From assembly GCA_045561055.1 (NCBI GenBank), contig JBJKYL010000013.1, forward strand, positions 64,495 through 128,494: 64,000 bases of DNA, written 5' to 3'. The translations under genes were made by a program, and so were the position numbers. The stretch's first letter is position 1; each line of letters starts with the position of its first letter. This document shows positions 4,286 to 57,238 of the stretch, piece by piece. The DNA comes from Candidatus Rariloculaceae bacterium (GTDB taxonomy: Bacteria; Pseudomonadota; Gammaproteobacteria; Steroidobacterales; Rariloculaceae). The notes beneath the pieces were generated by a model, which saw nothing but the letters and a program-made list of their open reading frames with translations, was not told the origin of the DNA and searched no databases.

Positions 4286-5875
4286 ATGAGGTATTGGCTT
4301 GTTTTTTTAACCGTGTTTGGTCTCAGTATTCCTGCAGCCTATTCTCAAGAAAACCGTCGTCCGAATATTCTTTACATTGTCGCGGATGATCTGGGATTCA
4401 CCGATATTGGCGCATTTGGTAGCGAAATATCAACGCCTAATCTTGATGCATTAGCTTACGAAGGCGTTAGGTTGACGAACTTTCACACGGACCGTTCTTG
4501 CCAGGCTACCCGCACGATGTTGATGACCAGCACTGGAACAGGAAGATCACTGCAACTCATTGGGAATCCTATGAGCGGTAGGCGTGGGCATCTGTTGCGA
4601 CAGGATTGGGCAATTCTTCCAGAATTTCTGCAGGACGCTGGTTACACGACGTTTATGACGGGAAAATGGGATCTTGGTATTGGCGAAAATTATACGCCAC
4701 ACACGCGTGGATTTGATCGTTCCTTCGTGCTCCTTGACGCTTCGGCTAGTCATTTTGCAGAAAAATTCTGGGAGGACCCGACACCGTATCGGGACGAAGG
4801 TGTCATAGTGACGATTGATGACTTGCCTGAGAACTTTTACTCCACCGAGTACTACACGGACAAAATGATCGAGTACCTACAGGCCCACGGTAGCGATGAG
4901 CCTTGGTTCGCATACGTCCCCTATACCGCGCCGCATTGGCCTTTACAACTTCCTGATGCTTGGCTGGACCGTTACGCTGGAAGATACGATGAAGGGTACG
5001 ACGTATTACGCGAAGAGCGCATGGTGAAAGCCGAAGAACTGGGCGTGTTGCCGCCGAATGCTGACCCAGATAGCTATACGTTCTCCGAAAGTTCCTGGGC
5101 AACACTCAGTGCAGAAGACAAAGTGAAGCATGCGCGTGCCCAGGAGATATATGCCGGTATGGTTGAGTACATGGATATGAGTGTCGGCCGGCTCGTAGAT
5201 TATTTAGAGCAAAGCGGTCAAATTGACGATACCGTGATCATGTTTTCTTCCGATCATGGTGGTTCCGACAGTGCGGCTGGTCTAGTGGAAGGTGCACAGA
5301 CGGGTAACGTGCCGAATCTTGACCGTCGCGTCGAGAATTACGGTCGTAAGCGTTCTTATATCGACCATGGGCCCGGATTTGCTTCAGCGTCGACGGCGCC
5401 GCTCAAGGGTTATAAAGGAATGCATACGGAAGGGGGGCTGACTGCTGCCGCGTTCCTTTGGTATCCGGCGCAGATCCTGGCCGGTACGGTGAATAACACC
5501 TACATGACTGTTATGGACGTATTACCAACTTTTCTTGAAATAGCGGAAACTGAACACCCCGGCGCGTCTGAGTATAAGGGGCGTCAAATTAAAGGTATCG
5601 TTGGTCGATCGTTTTGGCCACATCTGATCGGTGAAGCCGATTTAGTTCATCCCCCGACTGATATTACTGGATGGGTGAACCGCGAATTCGGCGCGTTGAT
5701 TCGCGGTAACTTCAAACTTGTTAATGGAGAATCGTTAAATGCCGACGGTGTATCGCCATGGCAGCTCTACGATCTTTCAATTGATCGTGGTGAGACACGA
5801 GATATCTCCGCCGAGCATCCCGAATTGACTGCAGAACTTGCCGCTGAATGGCAAGAGAATTGGAGTCAGCGTTAG
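4286..5875 (+). CDS. Exported Cys-type (formylglycine) arylsulfatase, AtsA-like
   Basis: Signal peptide, then PNILYIVADDLGFTDIGAFGSEISTPNLD and the FGly motif SCQATRTMLMTS (C-x-A-x-R); later SSDHGG. Shine-Dalgarno-like GGAG lies 5 nt upstream of the ATG. About 60 percent identical by eye to the broken paralog at 29975-31670. Confidence 0.9.
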   Translation: MRYWLVFLTVFGLSIPAAYSQENRRPNILYIVADDLGFTDIGAFGSEISTPNLDALAYEGVRLTNFHTDRSCQATRTMLMTSTGTGRSLQLIGNPMSGRRGHLLRQDWAILPEFLQDAGYTTFMTGKWDLGIGENYTPHTRGFDRSFVLLDASASHFAEKFWEDPTPYRDEGVIVTIDDLPENFYSTEYYTDKMIEYLQAHGSDEPWFAYVPYTAPHWPLQLPDAWLDRYAGRYDEGYDVLREERMVKAEELGVLPPNADPDSYTFSESSWATLSAEDKVKHARAQEIYAGMVEYMDMSVGRLVDYLEQSGQIDDTVIMFSSDHGGSDSAAGLVEGAQTGNVPNLDRRVENYGRKRSYIDHGPGFASASTAPLKGYKGMHTEGGLTAAAFLWYPAQILAGTVNNTYMTVMDVLPTFLEIAETEHPGASEYKGRQIKGIVGRSFWPHLIGEADLVHPPTDITGWVNREFGALIRGNFKLVNGESLNADGVSPWQLYDLSIDRGETRDISAEHPELTAELAAEWQENWSQR

Positions 5876-7717: not shown

Positions 7718-8728
7718 ATGAAGGTCTTAATAGTTCTGTTTTGTTTTATGTTAGCGCCGACGCTTGGTTTTTCGCACCATTCGCGAGCTGAGTTTTCAGA
7801 TGAAGTCGAAGAGATTACCGGTGAGCTCATTAGTGCGCGTTGGACTAATCCTCATCCAGAGCTGACATTGCTTGTTACTGGGGCGGACGGACTACAGGAG
7901 ACGCTCGTCGTCCAGGTATATGGTGCCGCTAACAATTTACGGCAAGCTGGCGTCACCGACGAGTTGTTCGATATTGGGGATGAGGTGACGATTGCTGGTC
8001 AGCGTTCCTCCCGTCGCGAAGACTTAATCCTCGGCACACATATGCTATTGGTTGATGGTAGACAGGCTATTTTTCATCGCACGTTAGAGCCGTTTTGGTC
8101 GACCGAAATCGTCGGCGGCATGGAAAATTTTCTCGAAGCTGGTTCGGGGCTTGCGGATGGGTTGGCGGAGAATCGAGGATTGTTTCGGATGTGGAGCATT
8201 GTGCAGGGTCCCGGTGGTGATCGTCGTAGTCTGCATATGCTATTGACTGAAGCTGGGATAGCCCGACAGGCTGAGTTCGATGAGGAAAACAGCTGGATTG
8301 GTCGCCTTGAAAAACCTGGCATGCCCGCTTTTATGAACAGTCGCAATAATTTCGAATTCTTTGACGATGGTGACACGATTCGTTACGAGCAAGGCGTGTT
8401 TGATGTCGTACGAACTATCTATCTCCCGGAATCAGAGGGGTTAGAGGACCCTTCCCACTCACCACTAGGTTACTCGACCGGACGGATGGAAGGTAGGACT
8501 TTAATTGTTGAGACAACTCGGCTTAATTGGCCTTACTTTAATCGCGAAGGGATTCCGTTAAGTGAAGATGTGCATATTACTGAGAGATTTACCGTAAGTG
8601 ACGACCAGACAAGTCTCGATTATCACATGACCATTGTCGATCCTGTTAACTTTTCGGAGCCAGTAACTTTGACGCGCCATTGGGTAGCGCTAGAGAACCC
8701 GACGCCTGACGAACGCTACGTTCGATAG
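7718..8728 (+). CDS. Exported fused N+C two-module protein, paralog L2 (the only Cys-free member)
   Basis: MKVLIVLFCFMLAPTLGFS|HHSRAEF, then RWTNPHPEL. Linker GLFRMWS. C-module has EKPGMP (no Cys), LGYSTGRMEGRTLIVETTRLNWPYF, TERFTVSDD, VDPVNFSEP, and a C-terminus ENPTPDERYVR with no Cys. Confidence 0.85.
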   Translation: MKVLIVLFCFMLAPTLGFSHHSRAEFSDEVEEITGELISARWTNPHPELTLLVTGADGLQETLVVQVYGAANNLRQAGVTDELFDIGDEVTIAGQRSSRREDLILGTHMLLVDGRQAIFHRTLEPFWSTEIVGGMENFLEAGSGLADGLAENRGLFRMWSIVQGPGGDRRSLHMLLTEAGIARQAEFDEENSWIGRLEKPGMPAFMNSRNNFEFFDDGDTIRYEQGVFDVVRTIYLPESEGLEDPSHSPLGYSTGRMEGRTLIVETTRLNWPYFNREGIPLSEDVHITERFTVSDDQTSLDYHMTIVDPVNFSEPVTLTRHWVALENPTPDERYVR

Positions 8729-8752
8729 GTTAGTCAGAGAGTCTGTAGTTAC

Positions 8753-9859
8753 TTAAATACCAAATACACGCTCGGCAGTGCGGTGAAATATTTTTGCTCT
8801 ATCGCTACTTGATAGCGGCGCATCCTCGATCATCTTAACTAATGGTTCATTGATGCCATAGGGATAGTCGACAGCGAACATGATTCGGTCTGCGCCAAGT
8901 ACTTCCATGCAGAGATTCAACGTAGGGGGTGAGTTCATGCCACTAGTTGTTATTACAAAGTTGTCGAGAAAGTATTCACTCGGCATGCGTTGTGCGATCC
9001 AGTTAGGCGACTGATAGAAACGTCTTAACGTCGAGTCGAGTCGGTCAAGCCAGAAGGGCACGCCTTCTCCCATATGTCCAAGAATCACGGTGAGATTGGG
9101 GAACTGGTCGAATACGCCACCTAACATCATCCGCACGGCGTGCAGTGAGCTTTCCATATGAAAACCCCAGGTGGCGCCTTCTAACGGATATTCCGTAAAC
9201 GGATCCAACATGCCAGCCGGCGGCGTACGCGGGTGCAAGTAAACAGGTGCGCCAGCGGCTTCCGCACTTTCCAGTATCGGCCAGAATTTTTGGTTATCCA
9301 GAAACTCGCCCTTCGTATGCGAATTAATAACAATGCCGTGAAGGCCGAGGGTCCCAACGGCGCGTTCTAATTCTAGTGCGGCACCCTCGATATCCTGTGG
9401 CGCGAGTGTCGCTAGGGCCGCAAATCGTGTTGGGTGCTTCTCAACGATTTCAGCAGCACGGTCATTGGCAAGGCGGGCAAGCTCAGTTGCTTGCTCTGCG
9501 CCGAAGGCCTGCACTCCAGGTGAGGTTAGCGATAAGACTTGCATATCGATACCAGCCGCATCCATGGCATCCAGCCGCTCGCCCTCCAGATCGGCAAGCC
9601 GATCCCAGATTCCTGCGAAGGGCGTACCGATAATACGGTTATAGAAGGTTGTATAACCCGGTTCATCCGCTGCACCGGTTGCCATTAGTTCGTGTATAGC
9701 CGCGGTTATTTCCGGGATAATAAAGGCTTCTTCGGTTGTGATTCGACGGAATGCTGTTTCACTTTGGGACCATGCTGTGCGCCCCGGCCCGATGAAAGCT
9801 AGGGAAGCGAGTGATGCTTTCTGCAGGAAATCTCGTCTATTGTTATTCAATGGAGCCAC
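8753..9859 (-). CDS. Tat-exported amidohydrolase-2 (ACMSD/LigW-like metal-dependent hydrolase/decarboxylase) family protein
   Basis: Twin-arginine signal MAPLNNNRRDFLQKASLASLAFIG. Then ITTEEAFIIPEI, INSHTKGEFLD, LHPRTPP, ILGHMGEGVPFW and FAVDYPY, typical of Amidohydro_2 TIM barrels. The start lies 1 nt after the upstream YceI stop. Confidence 0.75.
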   Translation of the reverse strand: MAPLNNNRRDFLQKASLASLAFIGPGRTAWSQSETAFRRITTEEAFIIPEITAAIHELMATGAADEPGYTTFYNRIIGTPFAGIWDRLADLEGERLDAMDAAGIDMQVLSLTSPGVQAFGAEQATELARLANDRAAEIVEKHPTRFAALATLAPQDIEGAALELERAVGTLGLHGIVINSHTKGEFLDNQKFWPILESAEAAGAPVYLHPRTPPAGMLDPFTEYPLEGATWGFHMESSLHAVRMMLGGVFDQFPNLTVILGHMGEGVPFWLDRLDSTLRRFYQSPNWIAQRMPSEYFLDNFVITTSGMNSPPTLNLCMEVLGADRIMFAVDYPYGINEPLVKMIEDAPLSSSDRAKIFHRTAERVFGI

Positions 9860-9860
9860 T

Positions 9861-10481
9861 CTAGTTAGATGTTAGTTGTTCGGAATCAATGCGTTTCGCT
9901 TCTACGGTAATTTTTAGGTTGACATACATCAGGTGACCATTCTCTATGCCGTAGGTAACGCCATAGTCGTCGCGATTGAAGGTGCCGGAGGCGTCAGCTC
10001 CACAAATCATTTCTTCAGCACGACGGTGGTGTGGTTGGCATCGAAAATGTTCAATCGTTAGTGATAGCGGGTTCGTAACGCCGTGCAGCGTTAGTTCGCC
10101 TTCAATTCCGGTCGGATCGCCATATCTCGTAAACGATGAAATGATGCCGGTATAGCTAGCTGTCGGAAATTGGGCAACGTCGAGGATGTCTTCGGCTTTC
10201 GCATGCCTATTCATGTCGTCTAGACCGAAATTAATGGAATCCATATCGAATGTTAGGTCGACAGAGCCCGTCTTCGCTTCTTGATCAAGGATTATCGTGC
10301 CGGCTGTCCGTTCAATTTTTCCGCGCCAAATAGAGAGTCCACCCTGATGGTCTGCCTCAAAAGTCGGGAACGTATGTCGCGGGTCGACTTCGTAGAGAAC
10401 TGGTTCCGCAGAAATTACAGTCATCGCAATAGTGCAAAAACAACCGAGTGTTGCGCTAAGAAATTTCGTATTACCAATCAT
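9861..10481 (-). CDS. YceI-like periplasmic lipid/polyisoprenoid-binding protein
   Basis: Signal peptide, then YEVDPRHTFPTFEADHQGGLSIWRGKIERTAGTIILD and ELTLHGVTNPLSL, which is the YceI family signature. Confidence 0.8.
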   Translation of the reverse strand: MIGNTKFLSATLGCFCTIAMTVISAEPVLYEVDPRHTFPTFEADHQGGLSIWRGKIERTAGTIILDQEAKTGSVDLTFDMDSINFGLDDMNRHAKAEDILDVAQFPTASYTGIISSFTRYGDPTGIEGELTLHGVTNPLSLTIEHFRCQPHHRRAEEMICGADASGTFNRDDYGVTYGIENGHLMYVNLKITVEAKRIDSEQLTSN

Positions 10482-45496: not shown

Positions 45497-46291
45497 TTAA
45501 TTTACATCTTCGTCAAGGAAACTTTCAAACGAGCTAAAATCTAGGTAGTCGCCCGAACAACTAATCTCGCTTAACTCCCAGTTTACAGGTGCAAGCCGAT
45601 AGTAAAGCGTCTCTGCAATCCATGGCTCGGCCAGCGCGATTGGGTCTTCCATTGTGATATCGATTTCGAGATTGAGATTGTCAATGCGGCGGAAAACTTC
45701 TGTTACTTTCAATTGGTCGCTGTGTTGGTAGCCAGAACGATCCATCCATGTTCTTTCGTCGATACCGACAGTCGTCACGATGAAGGTCGTATCGTTTTGC
45801 CATTCGCCTACTGAGTTTCCGAGCCACAGCATTACGGGGTCCTCTGGGCTCTCGCGCCCGTCCGTATAAATGCGTCGAATAGTGTGGTCGTACTCATAGA
45901 GTAGAATGGTCTCTTTTTCTGTGTAAACGACTTCGAAGGGATATGGATGGAAATAGACACGCGGTACCCCGGGTGGATAGCAGCGAGTAAGGACCGGATC
46001 GTTAGTTTCGCCCAATGCGAAGGCGCCCGCGTTAGAGTTTTTCGCCTGTTCAAAGAGTGTCTGTCCCCATTCCGTCAGAATCGGTGGCTCGGGTGTCCAG
46101 GTTGAGCCGCTACGGAAAGTCCCTTCAGGGCTGATTCTCGTCCAGACTCCAGTGAGATCACGAGCAGGCGCTGGACCGTCTACATGGGGGGTAACTGTCG
46201 TTGGAGATCCGGTACCGAACTGGGCGGAGCTGCCTTGGGAAAACCCAAGCGCCACTGCGGCTAGTAAAATCGTTATTGTTATTAGGCGCAT
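45497..46291 (-). CDS. Exported C-module-only protein, paralog C4
   Basis: Signal peptide MRLITITILLAAVALGFSQGSSA|QF. LTGVWTRIS, LTRCYPPGVP, LGNSVGEWQNDTTFIVTTVG, TEVFRRIDN, MEDPIALAEP and EISCSG. Confidence 0.75.
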   Translation of the reverse strand: MRLITITILLAAVALGFSQGSSAQFGTGSPTTVTPHVDGPAPARDLTGVWTRISPEGTFRSGSTWTPEPPILTEWGQTLFEQAKNSNAGAFALGETNDPVLTRCYPPGVPRVYFHPYPFEVVYTEKETILLYEYDHTIRRIYTDGRESPEDPVMLWLGNSVGEWQNDTTFIVTTVGIDERTWMDRSGYQHSDQLKVTEVFRRIDNLNLEIDITMEDPIALAEPWIAETLYYRLAPVNWELSEISCSGDYLDFSSFESFLDEDVN

Positions 46292-46425: not shown

Positions 46426-46851
46426 TTATCGTAACGAGTGTGTTCCGATGCTTTCACCAGTCGTCAGGTCGATTGATTCCCAAAGCGCGATGTTTTCACC
46501 ATTAGGCATGATTATTTCCCTAATATGAACCGCGTGACCGCCATTTCGGGCTTGGGCCCCACTGATACGAATTTTGCTTCCTGGTACGAGTGTGTTCTTT
46601 GTCCAGCCGCCTCGTGCTAGTTTATTCGGAGCGGTTAGCTCGCCCGACCAATGTTGAATTTCGCCATTTTCAAGGGTCACGTCGAAGTAAACCTGCGAAT
46701 GCGGGTTAATGAATTTGAACTCGGTAACAGTGGCATCGAGTTTTACCATGTGCTCGCCGTAGGCAGCTCTACCGTGATGGGCGAACGCCGCAGCACTAAT
46801 GAGCAACGCGGTGAAGCTAGCCGCAATTAGCAAAAATTTGTGATTAGTCAT
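46426..46851 (-). CDS. Exported N-module-only protein (His-His/NPH), paralog S3
   Basis: MTNHKFLLIAASFTALLISAAAFA|HHGRAAYGEHMVKLDATVTEFKFINPHSQVYFDVTLENGEIQHW...GSKIRISG; 141 aa. Lies 134 nt upstream of C4 on the same strand. Confidence 0.85.
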   Translation of the reverse strand: MTNHKFLLIAASFTALLISAAAFAHHGRAAYGEHMVKLDATVTEFKFINPHSQVYFDVTLENGEIQHWSGELTAPNKLARGGWTKNTLVPGSKIRISGAQARNGGHAVHIREIIMPNGENIALWESIDLTTGESIGTHSLR

Positions 46852-49106: not shown

Positions 49107-49316
49107 TAGTGAGGATAACAGAATGTTCGTGGTGTATAAGGGAGGACCGATGTTGTAAAATAAGCATAAGAAAGGTTGTCAGGATGACACACAATTAATT
49201 AAAGCTGTTTGCTTTTTATTACTGATAATTAATCTTTTTTGCCGGATATTTCTGGCAGACTGTTACTTAAATATCGCGTTCGCGATTGTCTCGGTTGGAA
49301 ACCGCTAGACTTTTTA

Positions 49317-51485
49317 ATGATTAGATTTATTTCACTTGTATTTGTGTTGCTAGTAGTGGCAACTCCCATTATTGCGCAGGACACATCTGGTCGCGCATTT
49401 TCTAGGGATAACAAACGTGCGGTGATTTCGCGCATAGCTACGGCACCAATTATCGATGGCGTATTGGACGATATGGTGTGGGCCCAGGTGATCCCTTTGG
49501 ACGATTTCCATCAATACGACCCCATCGACCATGCCGAACCAACAGAACGAATGCAGGTGTATCTCGCTTACGATGAAGATAACCTTTACGTAGCAGCAAG
49601 GATGTGGGATAGCGAACCGGACCAAATTCGAGCACTTCAACTGGCTCAGGGTGGCAGTGGGCGCTGGGATGATGGTTTTGCTATTTACCTAGACCCGTTT
49701 AACAACAAACGCACTGGATATTGGTTTCAAACTAACCCGAACGGCGTACGGGCCGATGGCTACTTTGAGAGCGCGACAACGTTGAATCGTGAATGGGAAG
49801 GCATTTGGTTTAATGGTGCGCGGATTAACGATGAAGGATGGGTTGCTGAGATGGCGATCCCATTCAAGACGTTAAACTTCGAGGTAAACAATACCGATTG
49901 GGGTTTTTCAGCTGAGAGAGTAATAGCCCGTAAACAAGAGCGTATTTCTTGGTCTTCCTATAACCGGGCGGTTGATCCGGGTTCAATTGGAGTAGTTTCA
50001 GGATTTTCAGATCTGCGTCAGGGCAGGGGGCTCGATATTGTTCCGTCGCTAGTTACTAGCGGGGCGAAAGACTTTAAGGCGGGGGTAAAAAAGAGCGATA
50101 CGGAGCCTGCGCTCGATGTGTTCTACAATTTCACACCTTCGCTTACCGGTGTGTTGACACTTAATACGGATTTCTCATCGACCGAAGTCGACGACCAACG
50201 CGTGAATCTAACGCGCTTCAGCCTGTTTTTTCCAGAAAAGCGAGATTTTTTCCTGCAGGACGTTGATATCTTTTCGTTCGGTGGGCTAGACCGTAACGCT
50301 ATACCCTTCCATTCTCGTCGAATTGGCCTAAGTTCCCGTGGGCAGCCAGTGGATATGGAGTTTGGCGCTAAAGTCACCGGTCGTGTTGGTCGCTTCAATA
50401 TCGGTGTGCTTGGGGTAGAGCAAGAAGGATTCGAGAATATAAATAGTAGCAATCTGTTCGTTGGAAGAATTGCGGCCAATGTGCTAAGTGAATCCAGCGT
50501 GGGTCTTATTATGACGGACGGCGATCCGCGAACGAACATGAGTAATTCAGTATTCGGTGCGGACTTTCGCTATCGGAATACGAACCTCCCTTCTGGCCAT
50601 AGCCTTGAGGGAGAGGCGTGGTATCAGAGTAGCGATACTCAAGGGGTGAAGACTGATCAGGATGCTTGGGGCATAAGATTAGAGTCTCCCAATAACGATG
50701 GTTTTTCAGGTGAGTTTGAATATCAACATATCGAAGAAAACTATAATCCGGCATTAGGCTTTGTTAATAGAAAAGGTATCGAAAATACGGATGTAAGCAT
50801 CGGTTATACGAATCGATTTACCAACCATCGTTGGCTTAGAGCCATTGAGAGCCAGATGATCTCCCGCAATTATGCTTTGATTTCGGGCGGTCTCGAGAGT
50901 CGCCTCGTTTTTATTGAGCCGTTCGAGCTAGAAACTAATAACGGTGATCAATTCGGAATGCAGCTTTCGTACGAACGTGAAGTTTTGCTTGAACCATTCG
51001 AAATATTTGACGGCGTCGTCATCCCGGTTGGGGATTACGAGTTTGCTCGTTTCGGATTCGAAGCAACGGGTGCTCAAGAGCGAGCTTTCGGGCCGATGTT
51101 CGAAATCACGAACGGAGAGTTTTTTAACGGGGATAGATCTGAGATTTCGGTTGGTGGGGAATGGCGGCCGAATAATAGGCTGCGATTCGGCCTCGGGTAT
51201 GAGTACAACGACATTGATCTGCTGGAAGGAAGCTTTATTACTCGGCAGATTCGGATTAACGTTGATTTCTCCTTTAACTCCCGATGGTCTTGGGCGAATC
51301 TCCTACAGTATGACAATGAATCAGGTTCTGCGGGAGTCAATAGTAGATTACGCTGGAATCCGCGTGCGGGCCAAGATCTTTTCATCGTGTTGAATCATGG
51401 CTTCAGTGCAATGAGGACATTCCGAGATCTCGCGTCGACGCAGTCTCAATTTTCTGTTAAGTACACCCAAACCTTCCGTTTCTAA
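49317..51485 (+). CDS. Outer-membrane protein with N-terminal CBM9-like domain and DUF5916-like beta-barrel
   Basis: ORF track starts at 49239. ATG 49317 gives MIRFISLVFVLLVVATPIIA|QD. IATAPIIDGVLDDMVWAQVIPLDDFHQYDP...LYVAARMWDSEP is CBM9-like. The C-terminus VKYTQTFRF ends in the aromatic OMP signature. Confidence 0.7.
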   Translation: MIRFISLVFVLLVVATPIIAQDTSGRAFSRDNKRAVISRIATAPIIDGVLDDMVWAQVIPLDDFHQYDPIDHAEPTERMQVYLAYDEDNLYVAARMWDSEPDQIRALQLAQGGSGRWDDGFAIYLDPFNNKRTGYWFQTNPNGVRADGYFESATTLNREWEGIWFNGARINDEGWVAEMAIPFKTLNFEVNNTDWGFSAERVIARKQERISWSSYNRAVDPGSIGVVSGFSDLRQGRGLDIVPSLVTSGAKDFKAGVKKSDTEPALDVFYNFTPSLTGVLTLNTDFSSTEVDDQRVNLTRFSLFFPEKRDFFLQDVDIFSFGGLDRNAIPFHSRRIGLSSRGQPVDMEFGAKVTGRVGRFNIGVLGVEQEGFENINSSNLFVGRIAANVLSESSVGLIMTDGDPRTNMSNSVFGADFRYRNTNLPSGHSLEGEAWYQSSDTQGVKTDQDAWGIRLESPNNDGFSGEFEYQHIEENYNPALGFVNRKGIENTDVSIGYTNRFTNHRWLRAIESQMISRNYALISGGLESRLVFIEPFELETNNGDQFGMQLSYEREVLLEPFEIFDGVVIPVGDYEFARFGFEATGAQERAFGPMFEITNGEFFNGDRSEISVGGEWRPNNRLRFGLGYEYNDIDLLEGSFITRQIRINVDFSFNSRWSWANLLQYDNESGSAGVNSRLRWNPRAGQDLFIVLNHGFSAMRTFRDLASTQSQFSVKYTQTFRF

Positions 51486-51630: not shown

Positions 51631-52587
51631 TTATCGGGCAAGCGCGCTACTTATCGCTTCGAGATTGCTACGTAGTATTTTTTGCAGGCCATCGTTGACC
51701 AGCAGACGGTTCTCGACGATGCCGGGATCAGCCGAGTTCAGTACGACCAGTATGGCTCCCGCGGCTTTGATGGCATTCTGAATTGCGTCGCTAGGTTCCC
51801 ACTTGTGGAGAACGACCTGAATATTCCGTTCTAGTAGGTGGCCGGTTAACCTGACTAGGTCTTCCTCGGTCCAGCGTATGTCCTGCTTAATGAAATAGCC
51901 GTCCACATACAGGCCCATATCATTAGTTAGGTAGACGAAGTCTCCAGTGAGGGCGAAGACTGTATCGTTACCGGCTTCGATAAGTTTTCCTTGGTACTCG
52001 TTACGCATATTGAGAAGTGACCGCTTCAAGTTATCTAGATTCGTTTGAATCGTGTTTATATGGTCAGGGAAAAGCTTAATTAGATCGTGCGCTATGTTAT
52101 CGGCCATACGTATCGAATTAGACACGCTAAGCCAGAAATAAGGAGCAACGATGGAGTTGATTGGATTCGTGTCAGTACCCCAGTCGACGTTTGAAACTGG
52201 TAAATCCGCTAGCCCGACTCCGGCTCGATTTAATGACCAGGGCAAGGCGGCATCAATATTCACGACGCGTATGTTGACGTCTCGAGCGAAACGATACAAC
52301 GGGTCTCCTGGGAGTACATTCGTGAGTGATATGACAGCAGTTGCGGTGGCAAAAGCACCTTCCAGACTACCCGTACGCCTCGCGATGTAATCTCTTAGTA
52401 TTGACATCTGCCGGCCGTCTTCAGGGACGTTGATTATCTCGATTGGAGTTTCACGCGTTAACGCAGTTGCCAGTGAATAGGTTGCCTGCATGCTGGTCAG
52501 AATCGTGTCGGCTGCCTGCACTTTTGCGGATAGCAAAATGAGAAGCGCTATAAATCCAGGGAATAATGTGATAGCTAATCTAATCAT
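51631..52587 (-). CDS. TroA/ZnuA-fold substrate-binding-protein paralog lacking the canonical metal ligands
   Basis: Signal peptide ...SAKVQA|ADTIL, and colinear with cluster A-I binding proteins. The ligand motifs are substituted: VPEDGRQ in place of DPHxYEP, APYFWLS in place of NPHxWL, LTGDFVYL in place of [HE]xAFxY. Last gene of the minus-strand metal operon. Confidence 0.55.
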   Translation of the reverse strand: MIRLAITLFPGFIALLILLSAKVQAADTILTSMQATYSLATALTRETPIEIINVPEDGRQMSILRDYIARRTGSLEGAFATATAVISLTNVLPGDPLYRFARDVNIRVVNIDAALPWSLNRAGVGLADLPVSNVDWGTDTNPINSIVAPYFWLSVSNSIRMADNIAHDLIKLFPDHINTIQTNLDNLKRSLLNMRNEYQGKLIEAGNDTVFALTGDFVYLTNDMGLYVDGYFIKQDIRWTEEDLVRLTGHLLERNIQVVLHKWEPSDAIQNAIKAAGAILVVLNSADPGIVENRLLVNDGLQKILRSNLEAISSALAR

Positions 52588-52605
52588 TGATATAGATGCT
52601 GAAAA

Positions 52606-53511
52606 CTACACGCTGGCTTCCCGGTAACGGGGGAGGACCATGCGGATGATCATTGTAACCACAAAGATCATCGCTGCCGTTAGGATGATAGCCCCACCCG
52701 ACGGTATCGGTAGATTCCATCGCATCGGTGCATAGATACCGATCAGGCAACTAGTAGTGGAAAAGATAATGCTCCAGGTGACGAATCCTCTAATCGTTCG
52801 ATTGAGATTGCGCGCGGCTGCAGCAGGAATAAGTAGTAGGGCTTCAACCAATACGGCACCTACAATTTTGACACAGGCAACAGTCAAGATCGTTATAAGT
52901 AATACGAACACATACTCTAGCAAGTGAACATTAATACCACGGACGTGCGCAAGACTTGGGTTAAGACTAGCCAGCAGCATTTGATTGTAGAGTGGTATAG
53001 CGATCGCAGCAGTAATAATTGCCGTCGCCATAAGGACGTTCATGTCAGTATCATTAACCGTGAGTATCGAGCCGAACATAACCGTGTCGAGTATATGCGT
53101 GTTCACTCGTGCCGAGACCCAGAGGAGCGCAGTGGCACCTATTGCCAGCGATATCGACAGGAAGACGCCTATCAACGTGTCCGTAGACATCTTCGTGCGA
53201 TTCTTAGAGAAGTTAAGAAATAGAGCGAACAGAATGCAAAAGCTGAACATTGAGAAATAAGGAGCTGTGTAGGATTCGCCTATGATCACACCGATAGCGA
53301 TACCAGTTAATGCCGCGTGACCAATGGCCTGAGAAAAAAACGCCATACGCTTGATTACTACCATTGTTCCGATGCCACCTAGAAGTGGTCCGATCAAAAG
53401 GGCACAGAGAAATCCGTTCGCGACGAACGCATAGCTGAACGTATAATGGATTACACCGTCGTTGGCTAGACCAATGACGAACTGGCGCAGTATTTCGTAT
53501 AGTGCTTCCAT
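52606..53511 (-). CDS. Metal ABC transporter permease (ABC-3, ZnuB/TroC-like)
   Basis: 301 aa with about 8-9 hydrophobic segments. FSQAIGHAALTGIAIG is typical of ABC-3 permeases. Confidence 0.85.
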   Translation of the reverse strand: MEALYEILRQFVIGLANDGVIHYTFSYAFVANGFLCALLIGPLLGGIGTMVVIKRMAFFSQAIGHAALTGIAIGVIIGESYTAPYFSMFSFCILFALFLNFSKNRTKMSTDTLIGVFLSISLAIGATALLWVSARVNTHILDTVMFGSILTVNDTDMNVLMATAIITAAIAIPLYNQMLLASLNPSLAHVRGINVHLLEYVFVLLITILTVACVKIVGAVLVEALLLIPAAAARNLNRTIRGFVTWSIIFSTTSCLIGIYAPMRWNLPIPSGGAIILTAAMIFVVTMIIRMVLPRYREASV

Positions 53512-53515
53512 CGTC

Positions 53516-54244
53516 TTAGTTTGCTTCTACGTCGGAAGTGTTTTGGAATATAGGATTTGGGAAGAGTTGTCCGGCGATGGTACTTTTTAGGACATCTCGT
53601 GGCGGACCGTCCAGGAAAACTTTTCGGTCGATATACGTTAGTGTTTGTGCGAGCTCGCGGACTTGAGCGATATCGTGGTTGATCCACACGACCGTCCCAC
53701 CGGTTTGAGAGAACTCTACGATCAGCTGTTCTAGGATTTCTCTACCCTCAAGATCTAGTCCCGTCATGGGTTCGTCGAGTACGAGTAGTGAAGGCTCGGG
53801 TATCAATGCCTGTGCGAATAGAACACGCTGACGTTCCCCGCCGGAGAGGCTGCCCAGTTTCGATTTCCCCTTCTCCCCCATCCCAACGCGGTCTAGGACT
53901 TTGTTAATCTCGGCAAGGGGTTGGCGAGTGATACCTAAGAAAACCGGTTTTCGTTGGCGAGCCATCCCCATAAAATCGAGTACCGTGACCGGGAGTGTTT
54001 GATCAAAATTGAGGGTTTGCGGGACGTAGCCAATAGCTTGGCTATCGTTCCATTGGATTAAAATTTTACCTGAGTGGGGCATCTGGCCCAGCATCGCACG
54101 GACAAGCGATGTCTTACCGCCGCCGTTAGCCCCAACAATACAGTGGATCTCGCCGGACCGAATGGCGAAACTGACGCCCTGTAATATCCGAGTGCTACCG
54201 AGACTTAGATTGACGTCTTCAAACTCGATTGATGGTCCTCGCAT
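53516..54244 (-). CDS. Metal ABC transporter ATP-binding protein (ZnuC-like)
   Basis: Walker A GANGGGKTS, Q-loop, signature LSGGERQR, Walker B LLVLDEP and H-loop INHD. Confidence 0.9.
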   Translation of the reverse strand: MRGPSIEFEDVNLSLGSTRILQGVSFAIRSGEIHCIVGANGGGKTSLVRAMLGQMPHSGKILIQWNDSQAIGYVPQTLNFDQTLPVTVLDFMGMARQRKPVFLGITRQPLAEINKVLDRVGMGEKGKSKLGSLSGGERQRVLFAQALIPEPSLLVLDEPMTGLDLEGREILEQLIVEFSQTGGTVVWINHDIAQVRELAQTLTYIDRKVFLDGPPRDVLKSTIAGQLFPNPIFQNTSDVEAN

Positions 54245-54274
54245 TAAAGCTTCCTAATAATTTCTACGATTCGA

Positions 54275-55189
54275 TTACGATGCATCCTGAGCGACGTCGT
54301 TAATAGCTTGCGCCAGTGTGTCTAAGTTTTCGCGCATTTCATTGACAAATTTGTCGGACGTGTAGGGACCGCTACTGATATGAGATATCGAATACATTCC
54401 GACATCGGTCGCCTCCTGAATCGTGTCTGATAAACGGCTAGCAAAATATTTTTCGGCGAACAGCACGTTTACATTGGCGAGGTTGATCCGGTCGATAGTG
54501 TCAGCCATTTGCCGCGCCGTTGGTTCTACGCCATGCCGTGGTTCTATGACCGCCGATACCTGTAGGCCAAGTTCTTGGAGGATATAGTCATAGCCGCTAT
54601 GCATGGTTGCGGAAACAAAGTTTGATAGGTTCGTGCCTGAGACTTTAGTGTCGAAATCTGCGCGTAGCTTGCGGATTTCTAGTGCGTATTGACGTGCGTT
54701 GTTACGAAAAAAATCGGCGTTATTCGGATCTAGTTCGCCTAGTACGCGCGCGATAGAATAGATCTGCTGGATGGCGGCTGTCGTGGATATAAACGTGTGT
54801 GGATTGACCACTTTTTCGCCGCTGTTATCTCCTGTTACTGGTATAAGAGAAACGCCGTCATTGGCATATATCAGTGGAATCTTATCCCGCATACCAGCAG
54901 CATCAAGAATCTCGAACGCCCAAGAGTCATGGCCGATACCGTTGACGACGAGGACGTCCATTGATGTCGTACGCATCATATCGGCCGGTTGCGGTGTATA
55001 GCCATGCGGGTTCGCATCCCCATCAATCATCGGGATAGTCTCTGCACGGTCACCTACAATATTAGCGACGAAGCTGTAATAAGGATGTAGCGTAATACCT
55101 ATACGCAGTGTTTGAGCGCACGCTTCATTACCGACTATAGCTAGTAACAAGCTGATAGCGATTCCGAGTTTCTTAGATATCATAAACAT
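54275..55189 (-). CDS. Metal (Zn/Mn-type) ABC transporter substrate-binding protein with intact His ligand motifs
   Basis: ORF track runs to 55258. ATG 55189 (MFMISKKLGIAISLLLAIVGNEACA) avoids overlap with the upstream gene. LRIGITLHPYYSF, ANPHGYTPQP, VNPHTFIS and TMHSGYDYILQELGL correspond to the cluster A-I ligand motifs. Confidence 0.85.
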   Translation of the reverse strand: MFMISKKLGIAISLLLAIVGNEACAQTLRIGITLHPYYSFVANIVGDRAETIPMIDGDANPHGYTPQPADMMRTTSMDVLVVNGIGHDSWAFEILDAAGMRDKIPLIYANDGVSLIPVTGDNSGEKVVNPHTFISTTAAIQQIYSIARVLGELDPNNADFFRNNARQYALEIRKLRADFDTKVSGTNLSNFVSATMHSGYDYILQELGLQVSAVIEPRHGVEPTARQMADTIDRINLANVNVLFAEKYFASRLSDTIQEATDVGMYSISHISSGPYTSDKFVNEMRENLDTLAQAINDVAQDAS

Positions 55190-55202
55190 AGAGAAACACC
55201 GG

Positions 55203-55847
55203 TTACTCTCCGAAGATCCTTTCAACTTCTTGATCACCACTGTAGGCGACGACTTCACGCCAACCTTGAAGAATCAATGAATCGCGAAATCCGCTCTCTG
55301 GCATTTCCGCATGATTACTCGGTCTCCACCAGACAAGGCCTGAGTTCGTGTTAGTAAATCCAGCATGGACATGGTGGATAACGAGCAGGAAGGAACCCTG
55401 ATCCGGAAGTTGCCCATCTGTTCCTAAGTACATTGTGGATCCCTGCATTTCACCTTCTGGAAGTGGTTCGTGTAGTGACCATTTCAATGAACCGTTCTGT
55501 TCCCAGCTTGTATCTTGGAAAAACGGTGGCAACAAATAATCTTGAAAGTCCTGAAGGTTTGGCCAGCGAAATTTTACGCCCGGTTCGTTAAAAAGATTGA
55601 TGTCATCGTAGATGTATGGAATCTCGTCCTTGACCGTATAAAGCGAGTTGTAGATTGCCTGATCCGCGCCGGTTAAAGTATTAAATGCGCTGATCTGCCA
55701 GTCGTAGATGGCCTCAGGTTGTCCGGTTTGCTCACGGCTTCCGAGGTAAAAACCTAGGGCGCTACCTATGATTATTGTCGCCGCGAATATTATAACTCCT
55801 TCGAGGCGACTTCCGGATGGTCGGACATAATAAGTCGTGGAAGTCAC
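55203..55847 (-). CDS. Membrane-anchored periplasmic protein of unknown function (possibly DUF6162-type, recollection only)
   Basis: One N-terminal TM helix (GVIIFAATIIIGSALGFYLG) followed by a soluble domain with LLVIHHVHAGF. Gaps to both neighbours are 8 and 13 nt. Confidence 0.5.
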   Translation of the reverse strand: MTSTTYYVRPSGSRLEGVIIFAATIIIGSALGFYLGSREQTGQPEAIYDWQISAFNTLTGADQAIYNSLYTVKDEIPYIYDDINLFNEPGVKFRWPNLQDFQDYLLPPFFQDTSWEQNGSLKWSLHEPLPEGEMQGSTMYLGTDGQLPDQGSFLLVIHHVHAGFTNTNSGLVWWRPSNHAEMPESGFRDSLILQGWREVVAYSGDQEVERIFGE

Positions 55848-55855
55848 CGGAATAG

Positions 55856-56701
55856 TTAGTTACTCATTTCTGTGGCTTTTATCCACAGTACAGCATCGAG
55901 GGATAAATCTTTTTCGTTGTGCTTTACCTCGTTGTCTAGATCGAGTGCGCAGATCCCCCACCATCCTGCCTTCGGTAATCCGATCGTTACCTCACCTTGT
56001 GCATTAGCTCTGATGCTAAGCGTGATGAATGAGTTTTGTGGCGGGATTATTTTTGCGTTGGCAGAGAAGCGGTGTTGTTCAATTTGTGGTTCGTGATTTA
56101 GATATTCAACTTCTATCTCGGCATGGGGGACCGGCTGTCCTTCCGCTAGCACGACAGCGCGAAAGACGCCGCCAACCCAGTTGGCATAAGGCTTATCAAG
56201 CGGAACGATTTCAACCGGTAAACCGAGAGGCTTATCCCAGTTACCCGGTATACCGCCGACGTTAATTACGGTTTTTGTTATCTGCTGTATGTACTTGTCT
56301 TCCGCCTCTTCGTAGTAAGGGGAGGGATGAAGGACGAAAGTGTAGTCACCCAGAGAGCGCGTAACGTTTCTCGGTGGATAGGCGACATATGCGGCTGCCG
56401 CGCTATCAACGCCAGACCATATAACAGGTTCAAGATACTGTAAAAGATCTGTCTCGCGCGGTGCGGTTTCTGAGCCGCGCTGGCTGATAACGTAGAAAGC
56501 TTCTGGTTCTCCCATATTCATTGTGTAACCGTTGTTAAAGGGATGAGAGAAAACTAGTGCGAGCGGCAGCGCATGCGATTCGGTGAGTGCCGCATCAGGG
56601 GTGTAAAGAAGTTGGAAATGCGAGAATGCTGGGGAACCGAATGCGCCGAACAGTAATGTACCTGACAGAATAATTGCAGGCTTTAGGCGGGTCGGGCGCA
56701 T
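55856..56701 (-). CDS. Periplasmic DUF4198-like protein
   Basis: ORF track runs to 56824 and overlaps the upstream gene. ATG 56701 gives MRPTRLKPAIILSGTLLFGAFGSPAFS|HFQLLYTPD, so the mature N-terminus is His. The all-beta-looking sequence is typical of DUF4198 proteins found with metal uptake genes. Confidence 0.6.
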   Translation of the reverse strand: MRPTRLKPAIILSGTLLFGAFGSPAFSHFQLLYTPDAALTESHALPLALVFSHPFNNGYTMNMGEPEAFYVISQRGSETAPRETDLLQYLEPVIWSGVDSAAAAYVAYPPRNVTRSLGDYTFVLHPSPYYEEAEDKYIQQITKTVINVGGIPGNWDKPLGLPVEIVPLDKPYANWVGGVFRAVVLAEGQPVPHAEIEVEYLNHEPQIEQHRFSANAKIIPPQNSFITLSIRANAQGEVTIGLPKAGWWGICALDLDNEVKHNEKDLSLDAVLWIKATEMSN

Positions 56702-56714
56702 GGCCTTTGTTGCT

Positions 56715-57101
56715 CTATTCCTCAATGTCACGACCATCGATCTGAACGATATGTCCATCGCCACCCTCGAATTCCACATGGAAGTTTTCTTGCGGCTTGG
56801 TAAAGGTAAAATCGCTTTGATCACTCATAGTTCCTTCTATCAATATTTTTCCGCTACCATTAAGGATACGCATTGGTACGCCCGCGGCGGTACCGCCGTC
56901 TGAAAAACCACCCTCGCATGTAATCGTACCATCGCCGTTGTCATAGCAGTCACAGATCGGCGTATGTGCATATACCAGTTGCAGTATGCTAGCGGATAGG
57001 AGCAGAGAAAACGCAACCTTTTGAGTCACTACTGTTGGCTTTTTAGTGCTTCGAGGCAATTTGTACCGTGATCCTTTCGTAGTTTCATCAATGCTATTCA
57101 T
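56715..57101 (-). CDS. Small secreted Cys/His/Asp/Gly-rich protein, first gene of the metal operon
   Basis: ...SILQLVYA|HTPICDCYDNGDGTITCEGGFSDGGTAAGVP...HVEFEGGDGHIVQIDG. The mature part is about 85 aa, begins with His and has three Cys within 15 residues. Confidence 0.5.
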   Translation of the reverse strand: MNSIDETTKGSRYKLPRSTKKPTVVTQKVAFSLLLSASILQLVYAHTPICDCYDNGDGTITCEGGFSDGGTAAGVPMRILNGSGKILIEGTMSDQSDFTFTKPQENFHVEFEGGDGHIVQIDGRDIEE

Positions 57102-57238
57102 TATGCATGATTGACTTGCTCAATGAACGAGTATAATCCGAAAAATAGGCTGCTTTCTAATGATTATACAAAAGCTTAGCCGTTTATTAACAGGTTAAAG
57201 ATTAGGTTGAACGTTTTCGAGAGGGTGAATTGATACGC

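Follow-up and report, generated by a model that had tools for sequence, protein, structure and literature searches.

Periplasmic release of iron from pyoverdine and its subsequent import are carried out in Pseudomonas aeruginosa by the products of fpvGHJKCDEF (PA2403-PA2410), of which FpvCDEF make up an ABC importer with two binding proteins. Earlier accounts treat this machinery as peculiar to fluorescent pseudomonads and, to our knowledge, the roles of FpvJ and FpvK are not known. FpvC binds Fe(II) after reduction, and interactions involving FpvJ, FpvC and FpvF have been reported (PMC6954188). FpvF binds ferric as well as apo-pyoverdine in vitro and forms complexes with FpvC; it also interacts with FpvJ, FpvG and FpvH (PMC6954188; PMC11357680). 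Here a cassette of seven genes, g1 to g7, is described that lies on the minus strand at positions 51631-57101 of a 64-kb stretch of contig JBJKYL010000013.1 from a Candidatus Rariloculaceae bacterium; the whole of this stretch is referred to as the window. Judged by the sequences of its products, the cassette is a relative of the Pseudomonas FpvJKCDEF metal-stripping and import machinery. It has neither FpvG nor FpvH, and a DUF4198 gene stands beside its fpvJ-like gene.

The P. aeruginosa fpv locus was recovered via the FpvC sequence from metagenome contigs (100% identity), after which its genes were read and compared pairwise with those of the cassette. The small secreted protein g1 (56715-57101) matched FpvJ with 43% identity (E 2e-22), and g3 (55203-55847), whose sequence, on direct reading, has a single hydrophobic helix at the N-terminus as membrane anchor, matched FpvK (27%, E 2e-17). 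The core proteins followed the same pattern: g4 (54275-55189), a cluster A-I binding protein, matched FpvC (48%, E 2e-93); the ATPase g5 (53516-54244; Pfam ABC_tran) matched FpvD (51%, E 8e-79); the permease g6 (52606-53511; Pfam ABC-3, E 3.5e-49) matched FpvE (53%, E 2e-104); and g7 (51631-52587), a second periplasmic TroA-fold protein that is without metal ligands and has a signal peptide ending in KVQA/AD, matched FpvF (36%, E 3e-32). The order of these six genes is identical in both loci. Pfam assigned g3 to DUF6162 (E 3.7e-10), the family to which FpvK itself belongs (E 6e-46), and FpvF yielded the same partial match to the ZnuA family as g7, in which the match covers the C-terminal lobe only (E 7.5e-17). 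No counterpart of the periplasmic DUF4198 protein g2 (55856-56701) was detected in the P. aeruginosa locus by this comparison.

All seven co-directional open reading frames of the original prediction were found at the positions that it had given. With the most plausible starts the gaps between them measured 13, 8, 13, 30, 4 and 18 nt, in line with the 4-30 nt claimed; these figures assume ATG 56701 (MRPTRLK...) for g2, whose longest reading frame extends to 56824, and ATG 55189 (MFMISKK...) for g4. Support was likewise obtained for an operon that serves metal uptake and has a cluster A-I ABC core, two TroA-fold binding proteins and three accessory envelope proteins. The description of these three as uncharacterized did not stand, as the Pfam, NCBIfam and Fpv matches put them in the FpvJ/NikL-like, DUF4198 and FpvK/DUF6162 families. 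Since the cassette matches Fpv one-to-one, its ABC importer with two binding proteins is a known design, namely that of FpvCDEF. A ligand-less binding protein at the end of the operon had been called unusual; it is in fact a defining feature of FpvCDEF, the genes of which align one-to-one with g4-g7 and include, after the permease, one for a ligand-less TroA-fold protein. The classical cluster A-I importers ZnuABC, TroABCD and AztABCD have the same kind of ATPase and ABC-3 permease, and their binding proteins adopt the same fold as g4 and g7. Unlike these, the cassette has two binding proteins and three additional conserved accessory genes, and the three-His/Asp coordination of the classical systems is replaced by six histidines in one binding protein and by none in the other.

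Homologue searches with g7, g3 and g1 returned 576, 457 and 288 clusters, the last number referring to a 50%-identity representative library. A scan of one genome per species gave 31 loci, all of them in metagenome-assembled genomes of uncultured Gammaproteobacteria that belong to the Rariloculaceae, Steroidobacteraceae, Pseudohongiellaceae or Pseudomonadales or, in a few cases, carry the label Rhodospirillaceae; no cultured organism was present among these 31. When related loci were searched by tblastn with the seven window proteins, every sufficiently long locus of the first 33 kept g1-g7 in order, down to a g7 identity of 39-40%. Conservation of the accessory genes together with the ABC core, on which the original prediction had been made to depend, was therefore seen in every related locus that was long enough. 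Contigs bearing g7 homologues likewise had these seven genes in this order, and across several families, Porticoccaceae among them, the arrangement persists at identities as low as 36-40%. Variants of the arrangement occur. The Porticoccaceae-type loci (L033-L037) have two DUF4198 copies; L118 has the gene order K-C-D-E-F-J-DUF4198; L119 has two DUF4198 and two FpvF-like genes; and in L120 a thioredoxin-like gene (9920-10252) lies right behind the FpvF-like gene. The FpvJ-like and DUF4198 genes are adjacent in all cassette variants, L118-L120 included. Clustering of the flanking open reading frames revealed no conserved linked regulator, TonB receptor or reductase beyond the seven genes, save a loosely linked DUF6152 pair that is discussed below.

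Among 80 Pseudomonas-type loci (FpvC at least 85% identical), FpvG and FpvH were present in 36/36 that were full-length and DUF4198 in 0/80. Among 37 cassette-type loci, FpvG and FpvH were present in 0/37, whereas DUF4198 was found in 31/37, that is in all loci extending far enough. FpvG and FpvH were also unmatched in L118-L120, which makes 0/40 related loci, and neither FpvG (a PepSY_TM reductase) nor FpvH gave a tblastn match in the 64-kb window. In the loci examined, DUF4198 and FpvG/FpvH are mutually exclusive. As FpvG and FpvH are gone and DUF4198 is in their place, the cassette would rely on a different release step or on a reductase encoded elsewhere; the latter is compatible with the data, the flanks that were screened spanning 8-10 kb only. 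The cassettes further differ from fpv in their upstream element, in the lack of linkage to pyoverdine genes within the flanks examined and in their hosts, which are uncultured non-pseudomonad Gammaproteobacteria. In L118 the position that FpvG/FpvH hold in Pseudomonas, directly upstream of the FpvK-like gene, is taken by genes for two tandem DUF6644/CopD-like membrane proteins (4739-5744), which may be membrane partners of another kind.

The binding protein g4 is a full-length member of the ZnuA family in Pfam (E 2e-49), and it matches the PDB structures 6R3Z, 6R44, 6R5S and 6RU4 (E 2.4e-80). These represent P. aeruginosa FpvC with Ni, Fe(II) or Mn in a six-histidine site (bioRxiv 10.1101/2025.10.04.680417). 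Each of the six histidines replaced in 6R6K, a mutant of FpvC, has its equivalent in g4, the contexts being NPH, GIGH, NPH, TMH, PRH and SISH, and all six are invariant across 31 aligned sequences. The original prediction had described g4 as a ZnuA/TroA-type substrate-binding protein with intact histidine motifs. These motifs are indeed present; the number of conserved histidines is six instead of three.

The second binding protein, g7, has retained none of this site. When the profiles of the two families, g4 and g7, were aligned with each other (probability 97%, 273 columns), the six histidines of g4 were opposed by R59, N90, Y150, T214, Q235 and a gap, and alignment of g7 with AdcA showed H to Y and H to T replacements at ligand positions. 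The substitution of all three ligand motifs, which had been proposed together with the sequences of the motifs, was thereby borne out, and no intact ligand emerged from the profile alignment. Histidine was not encountered at the six ligand positions in 70 cassette-type or in 42 distinct Pseudomonas FpvF sequences, barring two to three at one column. An AlphaFold model of g7 built from 70 diverse sequences has the TroA/ZnuA fold (predicted local distance difference test score, pLDDT, 92.9; predicted template-modelling score, pTM, 0.89), and the best Foldseek matches of this model were FpvC, ZnuA and other cluster A-I proteins with template-modelling (TM) scores of 0.65-0.8. A first run with 20 close homologues had given a pLDDT of 59.7 with pocket regions below 50 and was discarded.

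Within the cassette-type g7 family the surroundings of the former metal site are conserved: R59 is kept in 59/70 sequences, E/D216 in 69/70, H261 in 70/70 and E/D287 in 69/70, and Y/F150, Q/E235, K262 and W263 are retained as well. On account of these strongly conserved residues of its own, g7 looks like a protein whose pocket is specific for some ligand that is not pyoverdine. Binding of a metallophore, which the original prediction had suggested as a possibility for the ligand-less protein, would agree with the homology of g7 to the pyoverdine-binding FpvF (PMC6954188). It is also conceivable that g7 is a degenerate paralogue that binds no small molecule and is kept for its effect on g4 or the permease, be it structural, chaperoning or regulatory. 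The loss of all six metal ligands would agree with this, as would the small number of residues (W152, D236 and W239 only) that are universal across the cassette-type g7 and Pseudomonas FpvF families. Such a role is nevertheless judged improbable, as the residues around the former metal site are strongly kept within the cassette family, as expected for a specific pocket, FpvF does bind pyoverdine in vitro (PMC6954188), and the presence of two diverged FpvF-like genes in L119 fits a diversification of ligands. The latter genes lie in tandem at 7847-9969 of that locus and are 38% and 27% identical to g7.

The mature form of g1 is predicted to begin at a histidine, HTPICDCYDNGDGTITCEGGFSDG...GH.V.ID..DI. 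(coding positions 56718-56966), H1 being the first residue after the predicted AxA cleavage. In the g1/FpvJ family (81 sequences from both locus types) H1, C7, C17, the GGFSDG motif and the C-terminal GH are kept, and position 5 is a cysteine in most sequences and a phenylalanine in the Porticoccaceae-type clade. Pfam gave no match for g1. In NCBIfam it matched the NikL/HI1622 family (NF058648) at 43.5 bits, with a cut-off of 100, over model positions 5-90 of 180 only. FpvJ, like g1, matches just the NikL family in NCBIfam, which at the level of sequence shows that FpvJ shares a domain with NikL. Among the best 150 of the 288 clusters of the g1 family most proteins are about 100-115 amino acids long and about 30 are 155-240 amino acids long, with the domain at the N-terminus; six of these longer relatives also match NikL under the cut-off.

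DUF4198, the family of g2, has more than 9,000 members, the first of which were characterized only in 2025. Pfam assigns g2 to it (E 2.5e-49). Its mature form is predicted to begin at a histidine as well (56620; HFQLLYTP...), the predicted cleavage context AxA/HFQLLYTP being found in 28/28 loci. The N-terminal histidines that had been predicted for both g1 and g2 are thus backed by an AxA/H context conserved in all 27-28 loci with complete genes. Within the g2 family H26 never varies, and H1 is conserved to at least 90%. The combination of a predicted N-terminal histidine with H26 resembles the His1/His18 nickel site of IsDUF4198, a DUF4198 protein with an N-terminal His brace that binds Ni(II) with a dissociation constant (Kd) of 18 nM and the gene neighbourhoods of which include NikR (PMC12537917). 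More generally, DUF4198 proteins bind Ni, Zn and Co via histidine sites (PMC12537917, PMC12663993).

A further predicted N-terminal His protein is encoded about 5 kb from the cassette, where a DUF6152 gene (46426-46851, minus strand) is accompanied by a gene for a 264-amino-acid partner (45497-46291, minus strand); it is recognized as such because the DUF6152 signal peptide ends in AAFA/HHGRAAY. A DUF6152 homologue occurred within the 8-9 kb flanks, on either side, of 17/40 cassette-type loci and of 0/80 Pseudomonas fpv loci. In L118 it lies directly upstream of the cassette on the same strand.

The cassette is read, with moderate confidence, as an Fpv-type machine for periplasmic metal release and import, in the order fpvJ-like, DUF4198, fpvK-like, fpvC-like, fpvD-like, fpvE-like and fpvF-like. 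By analogy with P. aeruginosa, a metal-chelator complex would arrive in the periplasm and be held by g7, which would pair with g4. The metal would then be freed, captured by the six-histidine site of g4 and passed on to the importer formed by the permease g6 and the ATPase g5. The FpvJ-like g1 with its N-terminal histidine and the DUF4198 protein g2 with its putative N-terminal histidine brace, always encoded side by side, would be periplasmic metal handlers, whereas g3 would act as a membrane-anchored accessory. We infer that the metal is most likely Fe(II), because the only experimentally studied homologous system handles iron and because DUF4198 genes are induced by iron limitation in Alteromonas, where they lie beside iron-responsive TonB receptors (PMC7190382). 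DUF4198 has also been discussed as a marker of trace-metal limitation in Southern Ocean SAR11 (PMC12972064).

Several observations weigh against this reading. No reductase was found in the window or in the 8-9 kb flanks of the loci, and no TonB-dependent receptor or siderophore gene was consistently linked to the cassette in the window or in the flanks of the related loci. A consensus scan did not reveal a classical Fur box upstream of the operon. In its pocket residues the g7 family departs from Pseudomonas FpvF, so that the chelator would not be pyoverdine. FpvC crystallizes with Ni, Mn and Fe, and hence the hexa-histidine site does not settle the metal. Moreover, NikL-like and DUF4198 components are otherwise tied to the uptake of Ni and Co (PMC2667541, PMC12537917).

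The last two points make nickel or cobalt a serious alternative, since the cassette combines NikL-like and DUF4198 components with an octahedral N6 site. In that case Fpv-related hardware would import Ni or Co: the DUF4198 (NikK-type) and NikL-like proteins would capture periplasmic Ni(II) or Co(II) and hand it to g4, at its octahedral six-histidine site, and g7 would bind a metal-chelate, for instance a Ni-amino-acid complex. NikK and NikL are accessory parts of Ni/Co energy-coupling factor (ECF) transporters (PMC2667541), and the DUF4198 domain has been reported in such systems (PMC7190382, PMC2667541). What the cassette has in common with NikKMLQO is that g1, with its NikL-like N-terminal domain, is encoded next to the periplasmic DUF4198 protein g2; its core differs, consisting of a ZnuA-type binding protein, ABC_tran and ABC-3 and not of NikM, NikQ and NikO, and g1 is without the C-terminal half of NikL. 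Consistent with nickel are the matches of g1, FpvJ and the longer g1 relatives to just NikL/HI1622 in NCBIfam, the nickel affinity and NikR neighbourhoods of the N-terminal-His DUF4198 protein (PMC12537917), the Ni(II) found in the six-histidine site of crystallized FpvC (6R3Z, 6R44) and the missing Fur box. However, the NikL matches amount to 24-51 bits, far under the curated cut-off of 100. In addition, a NikR operator, a B12 riboswitch and a NiCo riboswitch were not found, nor were urease, hydrogenase or B12 genes nearby, and the sole homologous system studied experimentally handles iron. For these reasons import of nickel or cobalt is regarded as possible, yet rather unlikely.

The original prediction had likened the composition of the cassette to auxiliary importers under Zur control, such as zrgABCDE; read in this way, the cassette would import zinc, and its secreted accessories would bind zinc. 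Two findings can be brought forward for zinc. Zcp, a DUF4198 protein of Neisseria gonorrhoeae, is a Zur-regulated periplasmic zinc-binding protein (PMC12663993), and the best NCBIfam matches of g4-g6 are to the zinc system AztABC, all of them far under the cut-off. On the other hand, no homology to ZrgA-E was detected. The fold of ZrgA is ferredoxin-like and ZrgB is a MacB-like permease that has four helices plus a sizeable periplasmic domain (PMC9820375), whereas g6 is an ABC-3 permease; searches of PDB sequences with g1, g2 and g3 returned neither ZrgA/PA4063 nor PA4066. What the cassette shares with Vibrio cholerae ZrgABCDE and P. aeruginosa PA4063-PA4066 is therefore no more than the broad concept of secreted proteins added to an ABC importer. 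Besides, g4 has the six-histidine site of FpvC and not the three-histidine site with His-rich loop of ZnuA. The sequence similarity of g2 to Zcp is local only. The gene for Zcp is monocistronic, whereas g2 sits inside an Fpv-type operon. When a DUF4198-family profile was compared with the PDB, the histidine that differs between the deposited Zcp sequences 9mhi and 9mhk, and that was taken as a ligand mutation, aligned with a glycine in g2, a comparison of ligands that is limited because Zcp aligned over its central 65 residues only. Regulation by Zur did not find support either, as upstream matches to the gammaproteobacterial Zur consensus were no better than those in control DNA. As a family assignment a zinc system of the zrg kind is excluded on these alignments, and the zinc reading as a whole is considered very improbable.

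Upstream of g1 a conserved operator-like palindrome, TTAACnGTTAnTAACnG, is found; in the window it lies at 57180-57198 (minus strand) and reads TTAACCTGTTAATAAACGG, one base off the core. The consensus of the palindrome family is TTAACnGTTA(n1-2)TAACnG. Related loci totalling 470 kb contain the core GTTA-N1-2-TAAC 13 times, 12 of these upstream of the g1 orthologue, and consensus scores averaged 12.3/17 in upstream regions versus 9.8/17 in control DNA. Porticoccaceae-type loci carry the related form CAACTGTTAACTTGCGTTAC. Elsewhere in the 64-kb window 10 matches were obtained at three mismatches versus 4.4 expected, none of which was convincing, and a literature search with the motif strings gave unrelated matches only, such as CRISPR guides and primers. 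The GGTTA..TAACC arms are reminiscent of DtxR-family iron boxes with a shorter spacer; the element could not be matched to a known regulator.

A sigma-70-type promoter, TAGAAA-18-TATACT, is predicted by consensus scan only at 57130-57159 (minus strand), and the -10 block GGATTATACTC is conserved in the closest relatives (L003, L004, L006 and L013). In scans with the consensus sequences of Fur, gammaproteobacterial Zur and E. coli-type NikR the upstream scores equalled those of control DNA. Two candidate operators were rejected. ATAATCATTA agrees by eye with the Fur consensus at 11/19 positions as a possible Fur/Zur box; it is not conserved and formal scans were unenriched. The inverted repeat GTATAAT-N25-ATTATAC (57163-57170 and 57131-57137, minus strand), a candidate NikR-like operator, spans the predicted promoter region and is specific to the window; it was dismissed because its left arm is absent in the same four closest relatives. 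Neither the window region nor any of seven related loci gave an Rfam match, whether to a B12, NiCo or other riboswitch. In two Porticoccaceae-type loci a near-identical intergenic stretch of about 130 nt precedes the fpvJ-like gene (L034, 3365-3480; L036, 3385-3500) and ends in the hairpin CCTTCT-aat-AGAAGG followed by TTTT. The intergenic DNA around it differs between the two, and it has no Rfam match; it may represent a small RNA or leader.

With respect to its surroundings, the cluster has a GC content of 0.46-0.52, which is like that of its flanks. The neighbouring genes of the window are unrelated and encode a sulfotransferase, a DUF1244 protein, an FAA hydrolase, a DUF5916/CBM9 protein and a gamma-glutamyltranspeptidase. 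The convergent downstream neighbour at 49239-51485 (plus strand) is the gene for the secreted protein of 748 amino acids in which CBM9-like and DUF5916 domains occur. Only the closest relatives, in 7 loci, share this gene, and a link with the cassette is not evident.

The design with two binding proteins, one of which is ligand-less, is already known from FpvCDEF. What is new is the variant outside Pseudomonas without FpvG and FpvH and with DUF4198 beside an FpvJ-like gene. It is rated so because no description of it was found in the literature searched, in which DUF6162 is not named and DUF4198 never appears together with Fpv. As to what this variant does, a more specific and quite tentative proposal, which we consider unlikely as it stands, is that across a widely distributed group of uncultured Gammaproteobacteria from marine, freshwater and soil settings the adjacent N-terminal-His pair of FpvJ/NikL-like and DUF4198 proteins fills the role of the haem-containing reductase pair FpvG/FpvH. 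The pair would unload the imported chelate by ligand exchange or metal-centred redox and hand the metal over to the six-histidine protein. If true, this would provide a first mechanistic role for FpvJ, FpvK (DUF6162) and DUF4198, and the 'pyoverdine-specific' Fpv machinery would turn out to be a single branch within a more general system for unloading chelates, to which the NikK/NikL accessories of nickel transporters are related. The finding corrects the automatic annotation, by which both binding proteins are called 'zinc ABC transporter substrate-binding protein'. It also joins FpvJ, FpvK and DUF4198 in one conserved operon outside Pseudomonas, and as such it bears on the acquisition of trace metals in abundant uncultured marine and soil bacteria.

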